This document shows, piece by piece, positions 3,945-30,888 of a stretch of DNA of 32,000 nt. A program made the translations under genes and the position numbers. Numbering within the stretch: position 1 is the stretch's first letter; every line of letters starts with the position of its first letter. The notes beneath the pieces are model-generated. The model was given only the letters and a program-made list of their open reading frames with translations, did not search any database and was not told the DNA's origin. The stretch is from contig CP113000.1 of assembly GCA_026625185.1 (NCBI GenBank), positions 2,742,651 to 2,774,650 of the forward strand. Reading direction: 5' to 3'. This DNA comes from Thermodesulfobacteriota bacterium (GTDB lineage: Bacteria > Desulfobacterota > WTBG01 > JAGOGO01).

Positions 3945-4571
3945 TTACTGCTGATGGTCATCATCAGCAACAAGTGTTATCTCCTCAGGAGCAGAGGGCG
4001 TTTCTGGTTCCTCCTGAAGTTTTTGGGAGAATAGCGGCAACATCGTTGCATCTACCTGACTGATATCCTCCAAGGCGGGGAGGTCTTTTAAGGCCTTTAA
4101 GCCGAATATGGTTAAAAAATTCGGGGTCGTGCTGTAGATCAAAGGTTTGCCGGGCACATCCTTTTTCCCGACAATTTTTATCAGGTTTTTTTCCAAAAGC
4201 GCGCGCAGAATACCACCGGCATCAACCCCCCGCACATCTTCTATTTCCGCTCGGGTGATGGGTTGTTTATAAGCGATAATCGCCAGAGTTTCCAGCGTGG
4301 CCGGACTCAAACGCGCCGGACGGATTTTTTTGAATTTCTTGATCCAGGGAGAATATTCGGTTTTGGTGTAAAACTGGAAGCCACTGGCAACCTCCCGGAT
4401 CGCGAAACTGCGGTTTAAATCCTCATATTCTTTTTTGAGTTCCGCCATTATCTCCCGCAAATCCTTCACTGGAGTGTCAAGAAAAATTTCGTTTAGTTTT
4501 TCCAGCCTCATCGGAGTCTCAGTGGAAAAAAGCAGACTTTCCAGAATAAGCTTAATTTCTGTCCGTTCCAA
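3945..4571 (-). CDS. scpB: segregation and condensation protein B
   Basis: 208 aa with typical ScpB winged-helix repeats (LESLLF...PM..., LSPATLETLAIIAYKQPITRAEIEDVRGV). Confidence 0.85.
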   Translation of the reverse strand: MERTEIKLILESLLFSTETPMRLEKLNEIFLDTPVKDLREIMAELKKEYEDLNRSFAIREVASGFQFYTKTEYSPWIKKFKKIRPARLSPATLETLAIIAYKQPITRAEIEDVRGVDAGGILRALLEKNLIKIVGKKDVPGKPLIYSTTPNFLTIFGLKALKDLPALEDISQVDATMLPLFSQKLQEEPETPSAPEEITLVADDDHQQ

Positions 4572-5970: not shown

Positions 5971-6648
5971 CTAAAAATTTAACAACCAGCGATTATCCTT
6001 CAACCACATCTCTGCTTGTTGGTAGTTCGGGAATAAAAGCCTGACTTTTTCCCGGAAGTTTCGTGAATGATTCCGCTCCTCAAGATGAACAAGTTCATGC
6101 ACAATCACGTAATCAACGATCTTCATCGGTGCCATGATCAAACGCCAGCTGAAATTTAGTGTCCCTTTCGGTTCGCAGGAACCCCAGCGTTTCCATGCGC
6201 CGGTAATACTAATCCTCTTAAAACTTAAGCCGGCCGTTTCCGCGTAAAGCCTGACCCGATCCTTGATTACTTCGTACGCTTGCTTTCGATACCATTGTTC
6301 AAAAAGCTGTTTCGCGTCAGATAAAAAGGATTCTGAAAACAAAAATTTCTTTTCATTAAAGACGATGGGTCGCGTGACATCTTGGATAACAAAAAGCGTG
6401 TGCCATTCACCCAGATACAAAAACCTTTCCCCGTCGACAAACTCCCGTTTGACTGACGGCCGAAAGGACTCTCGCGCCAGTTTCTGATGATGCAGTATCC
6501 ATTTTATTTTTTTTTGAACAAACGTGAATATGGTTTCTTCGGAAACTTTTTCCGGTGCCCGCACAATCAGACTCGCGTCCGGTGTAACCTGTAGCGCAAG
6601 TGTTCGGCGTTTTGATCGGATGATTTGTTTAATGAGTCCCTTATCCAT
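5971..6648 (-). CDS. YgjP-like (DUF45/M48-type) zinc metallopeptidase
   Basis: Track ORF 5971..6675; the start at Met10 (6648) is preferred. It has the HELVHLEERNHS zinc motif (HExxH) and a family-typical N-terminus (IIRSKRRTLALQVTPDASLIVRAP). Confidence 0.8.
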   Translation of the reverse strand: MDKGLIKQIIRSKRRTLALQVTPDASLIVRAPEKVSEETIFTFVQKKIKWILHHQKLARESFRPSVKREFVDGERFLYLGEWHTLFVIQDVTRPIVFNEKKFLFSESFLSDAKQLFEQWYRKQAYEVIKDRVRLYAETAGLSFKRISITGAWKRWGSCEPKGTLNFSWRLIMAPMKIVDYVIVHELVHLEERNHSRNFREKVRLLFPNYQQAEMWLKDNRWLLNF

Positions 6649-6693
6649 TGAAGCACCTTCTCGATCACCTGCCATACTATCTTTACTATGCAG

Positions 6694-7167
6694 TTATGGT
6701 AAACCACTACCCTTTCTCCCGCCCTTTTTCGTTTTATAAACCGCGCCCTTTTCCTTAACCTTAAAACCAATCTTTTTTTGAGAAGACTCCGGCGGTGTCT
6801 TCAGTTGACGGATTGCGTCAAAAACTTCTTTAAACTCGATATGAACCTGGGCCGCGCGTTTGCGTCGCAAGACACTGGAAAGCATAGCAACGCCTTGTTC
6901 GGTAAATGCATAGGGAGCTGGCGGTTGCAGATCACCCCAACTTGAGGTCACAATTTGCGACTTCAAGTTAGCAAGCTCTTGATTTGTAAGCTGAAACATA
7001 AAATCCTCCGGAAACCTTTCTATGTTTCGTTTAACAGCTTCTAACAAAACTTTTGGTTCGACCCCGTAAAGCTCTGCAAGCTCCGTGCTTAACATCACCT
7101 TCTGACCGCGAATCATCCGAATACGCTGTTCGACTTTCTTATCAGAGATAATCTTTCTTTCATCCAT
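6694..7167 (-). CDS. ORF6N (KilA-N-like) DNA-binding domain protein
   Basis: 157 aa. IRMIRGQKVMLSTELAELYGVEPKVLLEAVKRNIERFPEDFMFQLT matches the ORF6N domain pattern. Confidence 0.75.
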   Translation of the reverse strand: MDERKIISDKKVEQRIRMIRGQKVMLSTELAELYGVEPKVLLEAVKRNIERFPEDFMFQLTNQELANLKSQIVTSSWGDLQPPAPYAFTEQGVAMLSSVLRRKRAAQVHIEFKEVFDAIRQLKTPPESSQKKIGFKVKEKGAVYKTKKGGRKGSGLP

Positions 7168-7801: not shown

Positions 7802-10121
7802 CTTTCATTCCTTTCATAATTTTATCTAAAAGACCCATATGCCGGTGAACTGAACAATAATCCGCAGGTGCATTTTCTGCCAGGAAAAATTCTTCCCTTG
7901 GTTCCGGACAGACATCGGAAACAGCGATTTGCCCGCTTTCGGAACAAACAATGCGTTTTACCACCCCCGACGGCATCTTAAACCACTGCCCGGAAATATA
8001 TTCCGGTATGGAATTCACCAGTTCAGCCCAAATGGGCAGAGCAGCGGTTGCTCCTGCCACATGAATGGAATCGCCATTATCAAAGCCAACCCATACCAAT
8101 ACCAGGATATCCGGAGTATACCCCACAAACCAGGCGTCTTTATAATCATTGGTCGTGCCTGTTTTTCCCGCTACCGGAAACGTTACTCCCTTTGTTAAGA
8201 GAGAGCGAGCGGTGCCTTCCGTTATTACGCTTCGCAGCAGCGAGCTCATCAAAAAAGCTTTTGCCGGCGAAGTCACCCTTTTAATCGTCATTTGTCGCCG
8301 CTCCAAAACCTGACCTTTTTCATCAACCACTTCCTTTAGGGACAGCGGATGCGGAAGCACCCCGTCAGCGGCAAGAGCGCAGTAAGCACGGGCTAATTCT
8401 ATGGGTATGGTTTCAAACGCACCCAGCGCAAGCGACGGATAAGGCTTGACCGGAGTGGAAAACTGAAACGCTTTTGCCGTGTCGACAATCCGGGCCAAAC
8501 CGACTTGCATGGCCAGGTCAACAGTAGCAATGTTAAGGGACTTGGCCAGCGCCTTTCTTACGGTAATCCGTTCTTCTGAATCCGGCTCATAGTTTTGCGG
8601 TTTCCATTTTTTCCCATCAACCACATAGGTTTTAGGGGCATTGGATAAAATAGAAACCGGAGTAAATGAATCCAAAGCGCTCAAATAAACGAAGGGTTTA
8701 AAAGCGCTCCCCGGCTGGCGTCGGGACTGGGTGGTCCGGTTAAACTGGGTTTGATTGTAATTTCGGCCGCCAACCAGAGCCAGGATGTACCCCGTATTTG
8801 GCTGCATAACAATTAGTGCGCCCTGAAGCTTTTTTTCGGGTTCGGATCGACGGAGCTGGGGATAAGACTTTTCGAGGCGGGAAAGCCCGTTGGCAAGCGC
8901 CCGCTCTGCTGCAGCCTGAACCTGAGTATCCAGGGTGGTGTAAAGAGAAAGCCCGAGGTTGGATAAGGTCTCCGGTGGATAGAGGAGTTTAAGCTGATCG
9001 GCAAGGTAGTCAATGAAATAGGGAGCTTTATTGGCATAGACCATAAAGCCGGTTACCGTTACCGGCTTGGCGGAAGAAGTCTTAAGTTCCTGATCTGAGA
9101 TAAAACCCTGTTTAAACATGGCCTGCAATACCAGGTTTCTCCGCTCCTGACAGCGGTTTTTATCAGTATAAGGTGAATAGTAGTTCGGCGCCCGGATCAG
9201 TCCCGCTATCAAAGCCGATTCAGCCAATGAGAGTTCGCTCACCGGTTTGCTGAAGTAAAAATTTGAGGCTTCCCCCACGCCATTGATAGAGACCGAGCCT
9301 TTTTGTCCCAGATAGATTTCATTGAGATAGATTTCCAGGATTTCGTCCTTGGAATACCTGATCTCAATGTTGATGGAAATGAGAAGCTCTTTCACCTTTC
9401 GGGAAATGGTTTTCGCTGGAGTAAGAAAATAGTTTTTCGCCAACTGCTGGGTGATGGTAGAGCCTCCCTGACGTAATGCAAGGTGACGCATGTTGGTAAG
9501 CATAGCTCTCACTATTCCCAGGGGATCAACGCCGTGATGATGATAAAACCGATTATCCTCAGTCACGATTATGCCATCGATCAGGTACCGGGGAACCTGC
9601 TTGAGTGAAACTAGCTGCCGCTTCTCCCGCTCCGGGCCGAAGAAAGACATAATCTCTTCGGGTTCCAATTCCAGAATCGGCACCGGCTCACCCGTAGCCA
9701 GACGCGAGATCCCAATGATAATATTTTCAGAAAATTTGACCTGAACCGGGAATCCCTCCTGCTTTTGAGAAGGAATCTCGAAGTCATGTAGAAAAAGGGC
9801 AATTCCCGAACCTGAGGCACAAAACTCGCCTTTTTGCGTTGGGTTATGGGAGACCTTACGGTAGCCAAGACGATACAGTTTTGAAAAAAAAAGCTCCCGG
9901 TTTATGGTTTGTCCCGGATAGAGAACGGTAATGTCGGAAAAAACTTTCGAAGGAATACTCCAACGCCTTCCCGAAAACCGCTTCTCAATCTGGGAGGAAA
10001 GACTCCAGCAGTAAAGACACAAACCTATTACAAAAACAATGACCCCGGATACTGCGATCCAAAACAGCGTCCACCCGGATTTCTTCGCCATTCTTTTTTT
10101 TCTCTTAGCTATTTGGTCCAT
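7788..10121 (-). CDS. mrcA: bifunctional class A penicillin-binding protein (PBP1A family)
   Basis: 777 aa with an N-terminal TM anchor. Glycosyltransferase motifs (EDNRFYHHHGVD, RQGGSTITQQ) and transpeptidase motifs (SAFKP, KTGTT) are present. Confidence 0.9.
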   Translation of the reverse strand: MDQIAKRKKRMAKKSGWTLFWIAVSGVIVFVIGLCLYCWSLSSQIEKRFSGRRWSIPSKVFSDITVLYPGQTINRELFFSKLYRLGYRKVSHNPTQKGEFCASGSGIALFLHDFEIPSQKQEGFPVQVKFSENIIIGISRLATGEPVPILELEPEEIMSFFGPEREKRQLVSLKQVPRYLIDGIIVTEDNRFYHHHGVDPLGIVRAMLTNMRHLALRQGGSTITQQLAKNYFLTPAKTISRKVKELLISINIEIRYSKDEILEIYLNEIYLGQKGSVSINGVGEASNFYFSKPVSELSLAESALIAGLIRAPNYYSPYTDKNRCQERRNLVLQAMFKQGFISDQELKTSSAKPVTVTGFMVYANKAPYFIDYLADQLKLLYPPETLSNLGLSLYTTLDTQVQAAAERALANGLSRLEKSYPQLRRSEPEKKLQGALIVMQPNTGYILALVGGRNYNQTQFNRTTQSRRQPGSAFKPFVYLSALDSFTPVSILSNAPKTYVVDGKKWKPQNYEPDSEERITVRKALAKSLNIATVDLAMQVGLARIVDTAKAFQFSTPVKPYPSLALGAFETIPIELARAYCALAADGVLPHPLSLKEVVDEKGQVLERRQMTIKRVTSPAKAFLMSSLLRSVITEGTARSLLTKGVTFPVAGKTGTTNDYKDAWFVGYTPDILVLVWVGFDNGDSIHVAGATAALPIWAELVNSIPEYISGQWFKMPSGVVKRIVCSESGQIAVSDVCPEPREEFFLAENAPADYCSVHRHMGLLDKIMKGMKDVIE

Positions 10122-12901: not shown

Positions 12902-13657
12902 TTATATTCCCCCCTCAGGGGTTGAAACTTCCCCCCGCCGATAAATTCTGATGCTGCCGAATGCTTGGACCTGGAGAGCGCGAATTTTTTGGTTTTTAAT
13001 TAATTCGAGAAGCGCGACAAAGGTAACAATGATTTCAAATCGAGTAATGTAGCCGGAAAATAAATCCTCAAAAAGGATATGCTCCGCATCTCTTAATTTT
13101 TCCAGAATCTCAATCATTTTATCTTTGAGAGAAATTTTTTCCCGGGTGAAGTCAAGAAGCTTTTCCTGCGTTTCCACTTTTTTCAAAATTTCCCGCAAAG
13201 CCTCCATAAGATCAAAAAGACTTGCCTCGATGTCTTCACCCCCCTCCCCTTCTTCAATCTCCTCGTGCGCTGAACGCGCGAAAACATCTCTCCCCAGGAT
13301 TTCTTTGCTGCCGAGTTGTTCAGCGGCTTGTTTAAATTTCTGGTATTCCAGCAACCGCCGGACCAATTCATCCCGCGGGTCTTCGCCGGTTTTTTCCTCA
13401 GATAAATCCGTTTGCGAAGGAAGAAGGAGACGTGACTTTATATAAGCCAGAGTGGCAGCCATAACCAGATACTCGCTCGCGATATCAAGGTTAAGCTCTT
13501 GCATCAAATCCAGATATTCAAGGTACTGCGCAGTAATAAGCGCGATAGGGATATCGTAAATATCTACTTCATTGACCTTGATAAGATGAAGGAGAAGATC
13601 GAGCGGACCTTCAAACACGGGGAGATGAAATAAAAAACCTGGAGAAGTTTCTTCCAT
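12902..13657 (-). CDS. scpA: segregation and condensation protein A
   Basis: 251 aa with the typical ScpA N-terminus (FEGPLDLLLHLIKVNEVDIYDIPIALIT.QYL) and C-terminal winged helix. Confidence 0.9.
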   Translation of the reverse strand: MEETSPGFLFHLPVFEGPLDLLLHLIKVNEVDIYDIPIALITAQYLEYLDLMQELNLDIASEYLVMAATLAYIKSRLLLPSQTDLSEEKTGEDPRDELVRRLLEYQKFKQAAEQLGSKEILGRDVFARSAHEEIEEGEGGEDIEASLFDLMEALREILKKVETQEKLLDFTREKISLKDKMIEILEKLRDAEHILFEDLFSGYITRFEIIVTFVALLELIKNQKIRALQVQAFGSIRIYRRGEVSTPEGGI

Positions 13658-15373: not shown

Positions 15374-15684
15374 AGATTTTTTTCATCCCCGGTTTTTGTA
15401 ATAACAAAAGGGAATGGGAAGTGTTTTCATTGCCTAAAGTTTGGATAAACGTGACCCTTTTTTAACAAAGACTAGCGCTAAAGTCAATCATAACCTGAGA
15501 AAATTTTATAAAATAATATAGTTAAGGAGAAGATTAAAAAAATTATTAAAAATAAGCTGGGTTATTTATAAGTACGGAGGAATTGGAAGTGCACCCTTAT
15601 GAGTGATTGAGCGATATAGAGTTATAGGGGGGTACATTTTATTAAAAGATTTAATTCTCGTAAAGTGAATACGATTGCGATTAT

Positions 15685-17295: not shown

Positions 17296-17400
17296 TGCTA
17301 ACACGCGCCTATAACCCGCAAGCAACCAATGCCACAGACTGCCGGGCAAAACCAGTGAGCTTGCCCCGTGGTTCCTTGTCAGGTTGATTCGCGGTTAGCC
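17296..17400 (-). other. attC-like site A (105 nt) after the tautomerase ORF
   Basis: In minus sense it reads GGCTAAC (17400-17394) ... GTTAGCA (17302-17296). Hand-folded helices are GCTAAC/GTTAGC, CGCG/CGCG, ATAACC/GGTT(g)AT, CAAGcAACCA/TGGTTcCTTG and GGGCAA/TTGCCC. The boxes deviate by 1-2 nt from consensus. Confidence 0.6.
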
Positions 17401-17420
17401 CTTGCGTTGAGACAGTACAA

Positions 17421-17639
17421 CTACTGGCGTGCCCGCAGCTGCTTCACATCGTCGGTAGACAGCGTTTTGCCGCCCATTCCCCAGTCACCACTTTTAATTT
17501 CCTCAATGATGACGACCGTTTTTTCTCGCAGGTTTTCGCCCTCCAAAGTTACCATCGCTTCGGTGACCTTCTCGATCATCCGTTGTTTCTCGTCGCCCGA
17601 GAAAACGCCCTCAATCACTTTGATCGTTACTAGTGGCAT
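17421..17639 (-). CDS. 4-oxalocrotonate tautomerase family enzyme
   Basis: The ATG at 17639 follows AAGGAGGTGA. MPLVTIKV... has the catalytic Pro1. The 72-aa beta-alpha-beta monomer size is typical of 4-OT. Confidence 0.85.
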   Translation of the reverse strand: MPLVTIKVIEGVFSGDEKQRMIEKVTEAMVTLEGENLREKTVVIIEEIKSGDWGMGGKTLSTDDVKQLRARQ

Positions 17640-17685
17640 GTTGATCACCTCCTTTCTCGCGTTGAGATCAGTCAGTCTTTGAGAC

Positions 17686-17757
17686 GGCTAACGAAAAGCT
17701 CAGCCGCGCGCGACTGGCGGCACGCCGTAGCGCGTCGGCTGCAGCGCCATGTTAGGC
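17686..17757 (-). other. attC-like site B (72 nt) after the hydrolase ORF
   Basis: In minus sense it reads GCCTAAC (17757-17751) ... GTTAGCC (17692-17686). Helices are GCT/AGC, CAGCCG/CGGCTG, CGCGC/GCGCG and GGCG/CGCC, with single unpaired bases at 17742 and 17735 and a 3-nt loop. Confidence 0.7.
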
Positions 17758-17782
17758 GTCGCCTCCCCTTGCAAGCTTGCAC

Positions 17783-18565
17783 TCAGGCGAGGCTGCGTCG
17801 GATTTCTGCAACCACGTGGTCTGGGGCCGCGTGCACCGCGAGGTGGCCTTGTCCTTCGAGGATTCGAACCTCCGCTTTGCGCAACGCCGACTTGTATGCA
17901 CTCGCAATCTCCATCTGAAATTGGGGGCTGGCGCCACCAACGAGAAACGTAGTGGGGCAAGTGACATTGCGCAGCCTGCTCATGTCGAACTTCAAATTCA
18001 CTAGTGCTTCTAATTCCCTTGGTATTGTATTTGCCAGCGCGACACGCCTTGGCCACGCTGGAAGGGCGCGCATCTGAGCGATGTCCTCAGGCGCCACACT
18101 CAGAAGGATGGACAAGAAGCTGCACAGGGCCTCTTCATTCTTGCCTACCGCTAATAGAGGGAGCATCTCGTTTCGCAGTGCTTCGGGCCAATAGGGCAAT
18201 GCGCCGGGCAATGGTGGCTCGTACGCCACAATTCGCCGGACGTTTCGTGTCAGTAGGGCAGCCTCCAGCGCACAGAGAGCACCAAATGAGTGACCTACAA
18301 CGTCAACTGGCTCTCCGATGCTATCGATAAGCCCCGCAAGGTCGGAGAATTCCTTCTCTATCTCGTATTCCGGGTGGTCGCCACTATCTCCCCGCCCGCG
18401 ACGATCCATGCTCAGAACGCGGTGGGCGTTCGCGAGTGCCGGGACCACTGGCAACCAGGAAGTGGAGTCGACGCTAGTCCCATGCACAAGTATTAAGGGA
18501 CTGCCACTCCCGAATGGCGTGCAGCCGATCGCCGTGCCGTCACTCGCTCGGTATGAGATGGTCAT
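17783..18565 (-). CDS. alpha/beta hydrolase
   Basis: Track ORF 17783..18640. The ATG at 18565 follows AAGGAGA. It has HGTSVDSTSW (oxyanion region) and VVGHSFGA (nucleophile elbow). The gene is GC-rich; single 60-nt lines hand-count at 55% and 75% GC. Confidence 0.85.
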   Translation of the reverse strand: MTISYRASDGTAIGCTPFGSGSPLILVHGTSVDSTSWLPVVPALANAHRVLSMDRRGRGDSGDHPEYEIEKEFSDLAGLIDSIGEPVDVVGHSFGALCALEAALLTRNVRRIVAYEPPLPGALPYWPEALRNEMLPLLAVGKNEEALCSFLSILLSVAPEDIAQMRALPAWPRRVALANTIPRELEALVNLKFDMSRLRNVTCPTTFLVGGASPQFQMEIASAYKSALRKAEVRILEGQGHLAVHAAPDHVVAEIRRSLA

Positions 18566-18609
18566 ATCGTGTGTCTCCTTGAGATGTCTGGGAAGAAGCC
18601 GATCTCGAC

Positions 18610-18744
18610 GCCTAACGCTAAGCTGAGTGACGAGTGTCACTGAATCGCACTCGTTTACTCAAAAACTGTTTTGCACTACTCAAACTGACAACATGCCAGA
18701 AAAGCGTCCTGTGGCACTCGTTCAACTCCAGCGCGTTGTTAGAT
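18610..18744 (-). other. attC-like site C (135 nt) after the nuclease ORF
   Basis: In minus sense it reads ATCTAAC (18744-18738, 3 nt after the stop) ... GTTAGGC (18616-18610). CTAAC/GTTAG pair at the termini. A 15-bp helix joins 18622-18636 to 18715-18732, with three single-base bulges. Confidence 0.65.
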
Positions 18745-18747
18745 GAT

Positions 18748-19254
18748 TTATAAATCAATACCCAGTACGTATATAGGCACTTGAATCGCACTCTTAAAAT
18801 GGGGCAAGTAGCGAGTTACTTTTTCAAAGCTCAAGCTACCATCCCAGTTTTGTTTATATTCTTTGCTCATCTTTTTTTGAAATGCCCTTGTTGTAGTTAT
18901 ATAAACACCGACATCAATTTTATCTAAACCTGAATATGATGCAACCTGAAATTTCAGTATATCAATGCCAATGAACGAAGAATGACCGAACTCTACTTCA
19001 ACCCCGACTCGTCCCTTCATAAAATCCATCCTTGCAGAAGGGTCACCTTGTTCATCAAAAACCGCTGGCTGAGCCTCCCAACCTTGAGCCTGAAATAATT
19101 GATCCAATATCTCGTTAAATCTTGGTCTGGACAGTTCAGATATATTAATTGATGGATTAGTCAATATCTGCTCTATTTCTTGTTTTATTGCTAACTGGCT
19201 ATTTAATACCTGTTCAGCAAATCGAAAAGAAAATGTCTGCAAGCGAATGGTCAT
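18748..19254 (-). CDS. BglII/BstYI/BamHI-fold type II restriction endonuclease-like protein (no adjacent methyltransferase)
   Basis: 168 aa. From memory of BglII, VLNSQLAIKQEIEQIL resembles ILNPQLWKEIEETLL, and RMDFMKGRVGVEVEFG resembles DIDFGKRDTLVEVQFS (a D77-x8-E86-x-E88 catalytic pattern). VGVYITT...GSL...VPIYVLGI resembles VAIIITK...SSL...VPIRLVGL. The gene is AT-rich (one line hand-counts at 30% GC). Confidence 0.65.
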   Translation of the reverse strand: MTIRLQTFSFRFAEQVLNSQLAIKQEIEQILTNPSINISELSRPRFNEILDQLFQAQGWEAQPAVFDEQGDPSARMDFMKGRVGVEVEFGHSSFIGIDILKFQVASYSGLDKIDVGVYITTTRAFQKKMSKEYKQNWDGSLSFEKVTRYLPHFKSAIQVPIYVLGIDL

Positions 19255-19413
19255 ATTATTTTATTCCTTCATCTAACATTGATTATATGTATCTCGACTA
19301 AGAACCCAAACGACGCAAAAATTGCTATATAAGAAACTATAAAATACTTTATTTTTTGGTTCTAACTATTTATTATTTTTATTTAATCAAACTAAAGATC
19401 ACTTCTTCAGTTA

Positions 19414-19441
19414 TTGTCTTATACAGATCAATATAAGACAA
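19414..19441 (+). repeat. 10-bp inverted repeat TTGTCTTATA/TATAAGACAA followed by T6 (terminator-like on + strand)
   Basis: The stem is 19414-19423/19432-19441 with loop CAGATCAA, followed by CTTTTTTAT. No plus-strand gene lies upstream. Confidence 0.35.
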
Positions 19442-19483
19442 CTTTTTTATCAGCCATGCAAAGCCCACCGGGAACATCCTTCG

Positions 19484-19519
19484 GGTATTAAACAACGCAA
19501 AATCGGATTGTTTAATACC
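19484..19519. repeat. perfect 12-bp inverted repeat GGTATTAAACAA ... TTGTTTAATACC with 12-nt loop
   Basis: Hand-checked complementarity between 19484-19495 and 19508-19519. No flanking T-run on either strand. Confidence 0.6.
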
Positions 19520-19543
19520 TTAAAAACACAACCGGATTCTTAC

Positions 19544-19584
19544 ACACCCCGTCACCTTGTGAAACCCCCCTCAAGGGATTTGTC
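19544..19584 (+). repeat. dispersed hairpin repeat family 1, copy 2
   Basis: ACACCCCGTCACCTTGTGAAACCCCCCTCAAGGGATTTGTC aligns with 5927-5970 in the same orientation and keeps the potential for both hairpins. Confidence 0.6.
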
Positions 19585-19632
19585 TATATTCTTGGTTTTT
19601 GGGACATGTTGCAACATCCCCTACATTGGACC

Positions 19633-19678
19633 CAAAACAAAAAAAGGCCCATCGCCCTTAAATCCGGCGATTCGGCCT
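19633..19678 (-). terminator. rho-independent terminator downstream of the DHH-CBS-PAP gene
   Basis: In minus sense it reads AGGCC-GA-ATCGCC-(9-nt loop)-GGCGAT-G-GGCCT followed by TTTTTTTGTTTTG. The stem totals 11 bp (19645-19656/19666-19678). Confidence 0.6.
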
Positions 19679-19866
19679 TATATTGTATCTCATCAGTCAT
19701 TAAAATTCTTCCCACCAAAGACACCCTATTCCATTTTATCACTTATATTTTTTGGGGTTGATATTTTCTGTTTTTTTTAATACTAACCAATTAGAAAGTC
19801 AATAAAAAAAGAAATTGCTATTTTGTCATGCTTCGACAAGTTCACCATGCCAGATCTGGATTATTC

Positions 19867-22498: not shown

Positions 22499-23413
22499 TT
22501 AAGCTCGTGGATGATACTGTTTATGGATCTTTTTTAATCGCTCTTGAGTGATGTGAGTATAAATTTGCGTGGTGGCAATATCAACATGACCAAGCATAAT
22601 CTGCACGCTTCTTAAATCAGCCCCCCGTTCTAAAAGATGCGTGGCAAAAGAATGGCGGAGCGTATGGGGCGATAATTTCTTATTGATGCCGGCTTTTAAA
22701 GCATACCGTTTAAGCATCTTCCAGAATCCTTCCCGGGAAAATTTTTTACCTGAGGGGTTTAAAAACAGGAATGGACTTGTCATTCCTTTCCTGTGCTTTT
22801 GCCGGGCGGTCGCAAGGTATTCCTTCAGATAATGTTTAGCCGTGTCTCCCAAAGGGATTATCCTTTCCTTTGAACCCTTGCCAAAAGCAATTATATATCC
22901 AACCTCCAAATTAATGCTCGTGAGTTTGAGGTTGACTAATTCCGAAACCCGAACTCCGGTTGCATACAGAAGTTCAAGCATGGTGCGATCACGAAGTCCT
23001 CTTATTGTTTTAACATCCGGCTGGGAGAGCAAAGAATCCACCTCAACGACATTTAAAACCGAGGGAAGGTTTGGCCGGATCTTCGGTGATTCGATGTTTA
23101 TAGAAGGGTCCACATCTAAATGACCTTCCTGCACTAAAAATTTAAAAAACGTCCGCACCGCGGAAAGATTTCTACCCGTGCTTTTGCTTGAAAGTCCTTG
23201 AGATTTAACCTCAACCAGAAAAGACATGATGTCTAAATTCGTTAGGTGAAATACTTCAGTGCGATTGTTTTTTTCAAGATAGGTGATAAATTTCTGCAAG
23301 TCCCGGCTGTAGCTTTCGATCGTGTTTTTAGAAAGGCCTTTTTCAACCATCAGATAATTTAAAAAATTATCAAGGTACGCATCCACTGAATTTTGAGAAG
23401 GGTGCTTTTTCAT
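22499..23413 (-). CDS. xerD: site-specific tyrosine recombinase XerD
   Basis: 304 aa. The N-terminus is XerD-like (LDNFLNYLMVEKGLSKNTIESYSRDLQKF). Catalytic R...HTLRHSFATHLL...LGHVDIATTQIYTH are present, and the protein ends YHPRA. Confidence 0.85.
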   Translation of the reverse strand: MKKHPSQNSVDAYLDNFLNYLMVEKGLSKNTIESYSRDLQKFITYLEKNNRTEVFHLTNLDIMSFLVEVKSQGLSSKSTGRNLSAVRTFFKFLVQEGHLDVDPSINIESPKIRPNLPSVLNVVEVDSLLSQPDVKTIRGLRDRTMLELLYATGVRVSELVNLKLTSINLEVGYIIAFGKGSKERIIPLGDTAKHYLKEYLATARQKHRKGMTSPFLFLNPSGKKFSREGFWKMLKRYALKAGINKKLSPHTLRHSFATHLLERGADLRSVQIMLGHVDIATTQIYTHITQERLKKIHKQYHPRA

Positions 23414-30824: not shown

Positions 30825-30888
30825 GCTTCTTCACTCTGTTAAATATTTGAGATCTAACAGAACAAGCGCGGCATTTCTAACGAGTTAA
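30825..30888 (+). repeat. dispersed structured repeat family 3, copy A
   Basis: CTTCTTCACTCTGTTAAATATTTGAGATCTAACAGAACAAGCGCGGCATTTCTAACGAGTTAAA has a 7-bp hairpin, 30834-30840/30854-30860. Confidence 0.65.

Follow-up and report, generated by a model that had tools for sequence, protein, structure and literature searches.

The locus and its cassette array

The 32,000-nucleotide stretch analyzed here, hereafter the window, comes from contig CP113000.1 of a Thermodesulfobacteriota bacterium (assembly GCA_026625185.1) and encodes, at 18748–19254 on the minus strand, a 168-aa protein with a nuclease fold. Pfam profiles, alignment to sequences in the Protein Data Bank (PDB), and an AlphaFold2 model all place this open reading frame (ORF) in the BglII/BstYI family (PF09195), and it carries the residues D77, E86, and E88 that a first-pass annotation had reported for it. 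The gene lies in an integron cassette, and no DNA methyltransferase domain was found among the ORFs scanned in the window. The overall observation made in that annotation is real and was largely read correctly, as to the ORF, its family, its cassette, and the lack of a methyltransferase in the window.

Three attC sites lie within 1.5 kb in one orientation, each folding end to end as an imperfect hairpin, and they delimit three cassettes that are all read on the minus strand. Cassette 1 (18616–19276, 661 bp) holds the nuclease ORF only. It runs from TTAGAT, after the G of the upstream recombination core, to the G of its own R' core; the upstream core (GTTAGAT, minus strand, 19271–19277) is situated 17 nt 5' of the ATG, at the junction with an AT-rich spacer. 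The attC of this cassette (minus strand, 18610–18744) is 135 nt long, extends from R'' ATCTAAC (18744) to R' GTTAGGC (18616), and folds end to end on both strands. Cassette 2 (17692–18615, 924 bp), whose 5' end is TTAGGC, contains an alpha/beta-hydrolase ORF (17783–18565) and lies in a stretch of 55–57% GC; its attC (minus strand, 17686–17757, 72 nt) reads GCCTAAC ... GTTAGCC, with folding z-scores of -2.0 and -2.7. Cassette 3 (17315–17691, 377 bp), with the 5' end TTAGCC, contains an ORF of the 4-oxalocrotonate-tautomerase family (17421–17639), and its 92-nt attC (minus strand, 17309–17400; GGCTAAC ... GTTATAG) closes the array, lying directly against pdxH.

Cassettes are excised and inserted between the G and the TT of the R' core, and therefore the first six bases of a true cassette should complement the R'' of its own attC. 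Applying the consensus R'' RYYYAAC ... R' GTTRRRY, we found the start of each cassette to be complementary to its own R'' at seven of seven positions in all three cases (GTTAGAT/ATCTAAC, GTTAGGC/GCCTAAC, and GTTAGCC/GGCTAAC), against a background in which 5 kb of the minus strand holds just three matches to GTTRRRY and four to RYYYAAC. The nuclease gene sits in a real integron cassette, the first of three, as the first-pass annotation had proposed. No attC- or attI-like hairpin was found upstream of this first cassette (z = -0.17). At the other end of the array, CTATAAC at 15627, the complement of the last R', might have closed a fourth cassette, but this was rejected, as neither a GTT core nor a hairpin follows it; it is probably a chance 7-mer.

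The integron setting suggested earlier holds for the cassettes themselves and not for an integrase. No integron integrase was found in the 32-kb window, and the sole tyrosine recombinase there, a 304-aa protein nearby (22499–23413, minus strand), was rejected as a candidate: it is XerD (TIGR02225, 383 bits; cut-off 329.6), whereas its scores with two integron-integrase models fall far below threshold, at 157 (cut-off 265) and 97 (cut-off 435). Because its attC sites occur without an integrase in the window, the three-cassette array is a CALIN in the IntegronFinder sense (PMC9024848), a term for two or more neighboring attC sites with no integron integrase close by, rather than a complete integron, which would require intI, attI, and Pc. 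With three attC sites and boundary complementarity it falls within that definition, albeit with only three cassettes, set between housekeeping genes.

Base composition varies sharply across the array (17315–19276), from approximately 37% GC in the nuclease cassette to as much as 55–57% in the stretch with the hydrolase and tautomerase cassettes; most other 1-kb windows on the contig have 35–53%. This contrast suggests that the cassettes came from different donors. The identical 168-aa protein occurs on nine contigs, with the gene order alike in the places shown (one NCBI metagenome-assembled genome [MAG], three JGI metagenomes, and one Logan SRA-run assembly), as far as the contigs reach. Since the gene order recurs across several samples, the shifts in GC do not reflect a chimeric join or other assembly artifact.

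Family, fold, and catalytic center

The 168-aa ORF encodes a full-length protein of the BglII/BstYI family. The PF09195 Endonuc-BglII profile matches it at E = 7.4e-46 (156.3 bits; gathering cut-off 26) over profile positions 2–163 of 163, and BstYI is its sole PDB sequence match at E < 0.001 (E = 5.8e-8). The AlphaFold2 model, built with 40 relatives as input, has a pLDDT of 83 and a pTM of 0.83; in a Foldseek comparison of this model with the PDB, BglII, BstYI, BamHI, and OkrAI alone fall below E = 0.1 (TM 0.54–0.73), and each of the best 15 matches (E from 6e-9 to 3e-6) is one of these four enzymes. The BglII/BamHI fold proposed in the first-pass annotation is borne out by these results. 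None of the NCBIfam models matched the protein. NCBI has already attached the name "BglII/BstYI family type II restriction endonuclease" to it. Searches with Pfam, NCBIfam, and PADLOC found no second domain within the 168 aa, PF09195 alone being detected.

The protein resembles BglII and BstYI in its fold, in its full-length match to PF09195, and in the placement of its metal-binding Asp and Glu. It is shorter, at 168 aa against 194–223 aa for enzymes of the BglII/BstYI type, and to this extent the earlier remark on its length was accurate; but the length does not reflect truncation, because the Pfam model itself has 163 positions and 165–170 aa is the norm for the clade. Among 5.8 billion proteins searched, 1797 matched; the best 120 all belong to PF09195, are nearly all exactly 168 aa long, and are 70–89% identical. 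The family as a whole yields 589 clusters at 50% identity, 43 of them below 1e-30. Within it, the compact clade of 165- to 170-aa proteins, which numbers thousands of sequences of nearly equal length and whose members are 56–79% identical to the window protein, is the subject of the comparisons below.

The stretch ARMDFMKGRVGVEVEFGH of the ORF holds D77, E86, and E88, which in the sequence alignment stand opposite D119, E128, and Q130 of BstYI. D77 and E86 are the counterparts of the metal-binding pair D84/E93 in BglII and D119/E128 in BstYI; both are invariant in 40 of 40 relatives, and among 64 intact relatives D77 is found in 63 and E86 in all 64. Position 88 is the counterpart of the K of the PD-(D/E)xK motif, of E113 in BamHI, and of Q95 in BglII, and among the same 64 relatives it is variously G (34), E (20), A (7), Q (2), or C (1). 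At this third catalytic position, known active enzymes carry K, E, Q, or N (PMC4081073). The view that the catalytic core is intact therefore holds for the window copy, which has E88, and not for the clade, in which 41 of the 64 intact relatives have G or A; the E-x-E motif of the window copy does not define the clade. Further polar residues are invariant in the clade, K80, H91, D98, K101, and D114 among them, and their conservation leaves room for the idea that one of them might substitute for the third catalytic residue.

It is conceivable, though decidedly unlikely, that the protein is a catalytically weakened or inactive DNA binder or regulator that has retained the restriction-enzyme fold. 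The G or A found at position 88 in most of the clade is seen in no known active enzyme (PMC4081073), the gene is tolerated without a methylase, and the single informative fusion protein encountered joins a relative (P0219) to the receiver domain of a response regulator. However, the near-invariance of D77 and E86, together with that of K80, H91, D98, K101, and D114, would be needless for a pure binder, and the window copy has kept its glutamate at position 88. The frequent pseudogenization described below likewise suggests that the gene carries a cost.

Distribution and evolution of the clade

Scanning a single genome from each GTDB species recovered 78 loci in more than 20 phyla. The bacterial carriers include Desulfobacterota, Planctomycetota, Chloroflexota, Acidobacteriota, Bacillota, Bacteroidota, Verrucomicrobiota, Nitrospirota, Actinomycetota, and Proteobacteria, and the archaeal carriers Freyarchaeota, Bathyarchaeia, Thermoplasmata/Methanomassiliicoccales, Halobacteria, Nitrososphaerota, and Hadarchaeota. 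Several of these loci are on closed chromosomes or on contigs of several hundred kb; taxon labels on short MAG contigs call for caution. Carriers are scattered patchily over both domains, no phylum conserves the gene throughout, and for 16 of 64 members the nearest relative belongs to the other domain. A survey of the superfamily from 2012 described PF09195 as bacterial only (PMC3424549), and our literature search found no description of a cross-domain orphan clade. Viruses are nearly devoid of the clade (one match in IMG/VR).

One pair of loci deserves separate mention. A segment of a Bathyarchaeia MAG (L041:1-4953) and one of a Dehalococcoidia MAG (L042:4022-8974), both from one study, are 99.98% identical over 4953 nt, which reflects a binning conflict or else very recent transfer between domains. 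On plasmids, the sole close match is a 56-aa fragment on pBcl1 of a BclI-producing strain, [Bacillus] caldolyticus NEB414 (L092, NZ_CP025075.1, 636-806); this remnant is annotated as a BglII/BstYI-family endonuclease and is 80% identical to residues 99-168 of the clade.

Of 1892 pairs compared, 1847 have saturated synonymous divergence (dS), and the median nonsynonymous divergence (dN) is 0.26; the protein is therefore old and under strong purifying selection, and not just recently spread. The GC content of the gene ranges from 27% to 56% and tracks that of the host (r = 0.72), averaging approximately 8.5 points lower. At the same time, 19 of the 78 copies (approximately 24%) are frameshifted or truncated. 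Similarity between loci at the DNA level ends exactly at the ends of the ORF.

Gene neighborhoods across the clade

The neighborhoods of the clade were compared by all-versus-all BLAST, once for ORFs of 70 aa or more lying within 3.5 kb and once for those of 30 aa or more within 700 nt. No partner gene of any size is conserved across loci: only lineage-restricted clusters were recovered, and six is the largest number of loci with a neighbor in common. Two of the clusters of this size cover one set of loci, all of them Acidobacteria (Terriglobia), which points to local synteny in that group. The 125 immediate neighbors are spread over 118 Pfam families. A minority of loci have neighbors linked to defense, namely DpnI (three loci), proteins with SRA and HNH domains (two to three neighbors each), Schlafen-like helicase/PDC-S41 (three loci), ShosA, SIR2, and Vsr.

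Among these, a full-length gene of the DpnI family, which is dependent on methylated GATC, lies less than 2 kb from the homolog in three unrelated loci (L027, L047, and L068; for example, L047:2331-3119). Two loci from Thermoplasmatota have a 57-aa AbrB/SpoVT-like ORF (L018:4831-5004 and L047:4831-5004) that overlaps the nuclease start codon, and in three further archaeal loci (L035, L062, and L073) a divergent AbrB-like ORF lies just upstream of the nuclease gene. These AbrB-like ORFs may be lineage-specific controllers or antitoxins.

An integron context was recovered in two of 84 clade loci, those being the window itself (L001) and L009; the emphasis that the first-pass annotation placed on the cassette concerns a feature that is incidental to the clade. 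The second case (L009:5683-7605) is an independent cassette array in another bacterium, where the homolog is 76% identical and shares its cassette with a 77-aa ORF. The attC of that cassette (73 nt, GCCCAAC...GTTAGGC) is unrelated to the 135-nt attC of the window. A looser scan of whole loci for attC sites was discarded, as it gave 18 real matches against 43 in shuffled sequences, and sites were kept only with boundary complementarity (L001 and L009); across all loci such complementarity was found in eight of 84, against a null of 7.8%, which is the null rate apart from these two.

These neighborhoods bear on two alternative roles. In the first, the protein would be the toxin of an addiction module that stabilizes the array and is neutralized by a small neighboring antitoxin or controller. 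Toxin–antitoxin cassettes are common in integrons (PMC10661359), and both the AbrB-like ORFs overlapping the gene start in Thermoplasmatota and the additional 77-aa ORF in the L009 cassette could be cast in the neutralizing role. But the cassette in the window has no second ORF, with only 17 nt from its start to the ATG, and no small partner is conserved across loci; we regard such a role as very improbable.

In the second, the protein would be a domesticated cellular nuclease with a role outside defense, such as the repair or processing of a particular DNA structure. MutH and Vsr are restriction-enzyme folds of this kind. The very strong purifying selection, the shift of gene GC toward that of the host, the six Terriglobia loci with common neighboring genes, the many housekeeping neighbors, and the near absence of the clade from viruses and plasmids would all suit a cellular function. 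However, the distribution is patchy and spans both domains, about a quarter of the copies are disrupted, the gene has been found in integron cassettes and beside defense genes, and no partner from a repair pathway is conserved with it. A domesticated role appears quite unlikely.

Modification genes and target sites

Type II restriction–modification (R-M) systems are defined by a cognate methylase encoded beside the endonuclease, and no such gene was found at the locus. Domain scans (with precomputed Pfam matches for window positions 8748–29254) and a motif scan over all stop-to-stop frames of the window agree with the earlier observation that the 32 kb encodes no methyltransferase; the motif scan gave one spurious antisense match only. 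Across the clade, a DNA methyltransferase is encoded within 3.5 kb at four of 83 loci (L018, L044, L051, and L077), and those at L044 and L077 are Eco57I-like, self-contained enzymes. The nuclease gene is therefore solitary in approximately 95% of the 83 loci.

The sequences that characterized relatives recognize are not conspicuously avoided by the hosts. The first-pass annotation counted at least four AGATCT sites in the window; the count is in fact seven, and the last site that it listed lies at 30850–30855, one base from the position given. Under-representation of such sites had been put forward as a check. In the window, AGATCT occurs 7 times against 7.6 expected and RGATCY 22 times against 32, which is no avoidance. 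In 624 kb of DNA flanking the gene in its carriers, observed/expected (O/E) ratios are 0.83 for AGATCT and 0.71 for GGATCC. GATC palindromes in general are mildly under-represented in carriers (O/E 0.71–0.93), but no more than in hosts with disrupted copies, and the 4- and 6-bp palindromes all occur in the 624 kb in normal numbers, with none missing.

Several observations nonetheless accord with a classical type IIP enzyme that recognizes a palindrome with a GATC core, as BglII and BstYI do, and whose hosts are protected by a methyltransferase encoded elsewhere in the genome. The characterized members of PF09195, namely BglII, BstYI, and R.Nph3I, are all type II cutters of GATC-core sites (PMC10734518), and the window copy has a D...E-x-E triad like that of BamHI. 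Unlinked restriction and modification genes exist (PMC4176335), an N4/N6 methyltransferase lies 1.4 kb from the homolog in L018, and distant members of the family on plasmids can adjoin a methylase, as in Psychrobacillus pPB01. On the other hand, the gene is solitary in nearly all loci, across more than 20 phyla. It travels as a single-gene cassette or with homology that ends at the ORF, and a naive host could not survive the arrival of an enzyme that cuts unmodified DNA. The mild depletion of GATC palindromes is matched in hosts whose copies are disrupted, strong amino-acid conservation alongside saturated synonymous sites is atypical of restriction enzymes, and the third catalytic residue is variable. 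The evidence fits the earlier suggestion that this is probably not a classical R-M enzyme, and we consider the classical alternative unlikely.

Surroundings of the array

All genes near the array are on the minus strand, and the array is located among housekeeping genes, between that for the A-adding tRNA nucleotidyltransferase and pdxH. In descending coordinates, the order is PanE, XerD, the 874-aa A-adding tRNA nucleotidyltransferase, a 589-nt spacer, the nuclease, the alpha/beta hydrolase, the tautomerase, PdxH, a 3'–5' exonuclease, an M50 peptidase, TrpRS, and ScpA. The spacer (19278–19866) is AT-rich, non-coding, and without an integrase gene. It contains one weak sigma-70-like match (19563–19536) and a perfect 10-bp inverted repeat at approximately 19411–19440 (GTTGTCTTAT ...8 nt... 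ATAAGACAAT; fold z = -2.7). Searches of the window for Rfam families and tRNAs found none.

Two further features lie at a distance from the array. A gene for a YgjP-like (DUF45) metallopeptidase adjoins one for an ORF6N/KilA-N-type DNA-binding protein at 5971–7167; pairs of this type are frequent in mobile or restriction-associated regions, and no other R-M component was found near this one. The genes scpB (3945–4571) and scpA (12902–13657), which are normally neighbors in a single operon, are separated here by approximately 8.3 kb that includes genes for PBP1, a PALP enzyme, a TPR protein, the YgjP/ORF6N pair, and an aldo-keto reductase.

Discussion

The reading that we tentatively favor, at somewhat short of an even chance, is that the protein is a methylase-independent nuclease that spares unmodified host DNA, most likely acting as a single-gene defense. 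In this role it would be a homodimeric, Mg2+-dependent DNA endonuclease with its metal held by D77 and E86. A dedicated methyltransferase would not be needed if ordinary, unmodified host DNA is left uncut; the target would instead be specific to invaders, whether modified DNA, as for type IV or type IIM enzymes, or another feature absent from the host chromosome. The gene would move and persist as a single-gene unit, packaged as a 661-bp cassette here and with homology ending at the ends of the ORF elsewhere. The purifying selection, the patchy cross-domain spread with frequent decay, the defense-linked neighbors in a subset of loci, and the precedent of Brc142 (below) all speak for this reading. 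Two considerations bear on this specificity. Because hosts carry all short palindromes, the enzyme cannot cut short unmodified sites, unless every host has an unlinked methylase; and transfer as a single gene without a methylase argues against a cutter of short sites, since such an enzyme would kill each new host.

Modification-dependent enzymes of type IV or type IIM, such as DpnI, stand alone, without a methyltransferase, and are harmless to an unmodified host. The window protein differs from them in that no modification-reading module (SRA, the winged helix of DpnI, and so forth) was detected in it; any dependence on modified DNA is purely inferred. Other observations also weigh against a methylase-independent immune nuclease. 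The only PADLOC match for the protein is a generic model for type II restriction endonucleases (REase_II). The search for a methyltransferase covered the 32-kb window, and an unlinked one may be encoded elsewhere in the genome. Many loci of the clade lie among housekeeping genes and not in defense islands, and the neighbors shared by six Terriglobia loci suggest stable vertical inheritance in that lineage. Much of the clade may have an altered catalytic activity or none, as the third position is mostly G or A (41 of 64 intact relatives) instead of the K, E, Q, or N of active enzymes. The clade is, moreover, known only from its sequences and a predicted structure, and its nuclease activity is putative.

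Comparison with better-known systems helps to separate what is ordinary at this locus from what is not. BglII (AGATCT), BstYI (RGATCY), and R.Nph3I (RGATCY) are type IIP enzymes of PF09195, with BamHI and OkrAI as structural relatives, and R.Nph3I is among the characterized ones that have a methylase (PMC10734518). Unlike such systems, the window gene and approximately 95% of its relatives have no adjacent methyltransferase. The clade also differs from them in a conservation across bacteria and archaea far above what is usual for restriction enzymes and in a third position that is mostly G or A. Solitary restriction endonucleases are not in themselves rare: 731 were counted in 2342 chromosomes, and most solitary genes were reported not to descend from complete systems that had decayed recently (Oliveira et al. 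2014, PMC4176335). The orphan state described here differs from that of those scattered genes in that it marks a whole, tightly conserved clade spanning two domains.

The cassette setting has close precedents as well. The first-pass annotation called a solitary gene with a restriction-enzyme fold in an integron cassette unusual; a lone gene of this kind in a cassette is already known biology. In environmental cassettes, restriction endonucleases are among the anti-phage functions that make up an enriched defense category (PMC10661359). Solitary restriction endonucleases are likewise documented on chromosomes (PMC4176335). Among the Bacteriophage Resistance integron Cassette (BRiC) genes, Brc142 forms a cassette of its own and specifies a putative dimeric restriction endonuclease; it confers broad phage resistance and protects Escherichia coli, Klebsiella pneumoniae, and Pseudomonas aeruginosa experimentally (bioRxiv 10.1101/2024.07.02.601719). 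Homologs of BRiC genes also occur outside integrons without attC sites, and brc142 itself has no mobile-integron context (bioRxiv 10.1101/2024.07.02.601719). The window gene is like Brc142, as far as description alone allows the two to be likened, in being a restriction-like gene that occupies a cassette by itself and lacks a methylase; unlike Brc142, it lies on the chromosome of an uncultured sediment bacterium, in an array without an integrase, and is known from sequence alone. Integrons also occur in Archaea and can carry genes across domains (PMC9668308).

Taken alone, then, the window is ordinary: it contains an annotated family member in a small array without an integrase, a context already known for restriction-like defense genes. 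What interest remains lies in the clade, which is ultra-conserved, cross-domain, and methylase-less, strongly purified by selection yet often pseudogenized, and non-canonical at its third catalytic position. It offers a concrete case of one gene family present in both domains and occasionally packaged in cassettes with different attC sites. Should the clade prove active, it would be a case of a type II restriction fold operating safely with no modification partner, and its members would be compact candidates for modification-dependent or otherwise unusual specificity. A bolder version of the favored reading, which we regard as somewhat unlikely, is that the clade forms an unrecognized class of methylase-independent immune nucleases with the BglII fold, exchanged between Bacteria and Archaea, which would have dispensed with the canonical third catalytic residue and would be directed at an invader-specific target such as modified sites of the GATC type. 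If this were true, the family would represent a new single-gene immune nuclease and possibly the source of a new reagent enzyme.

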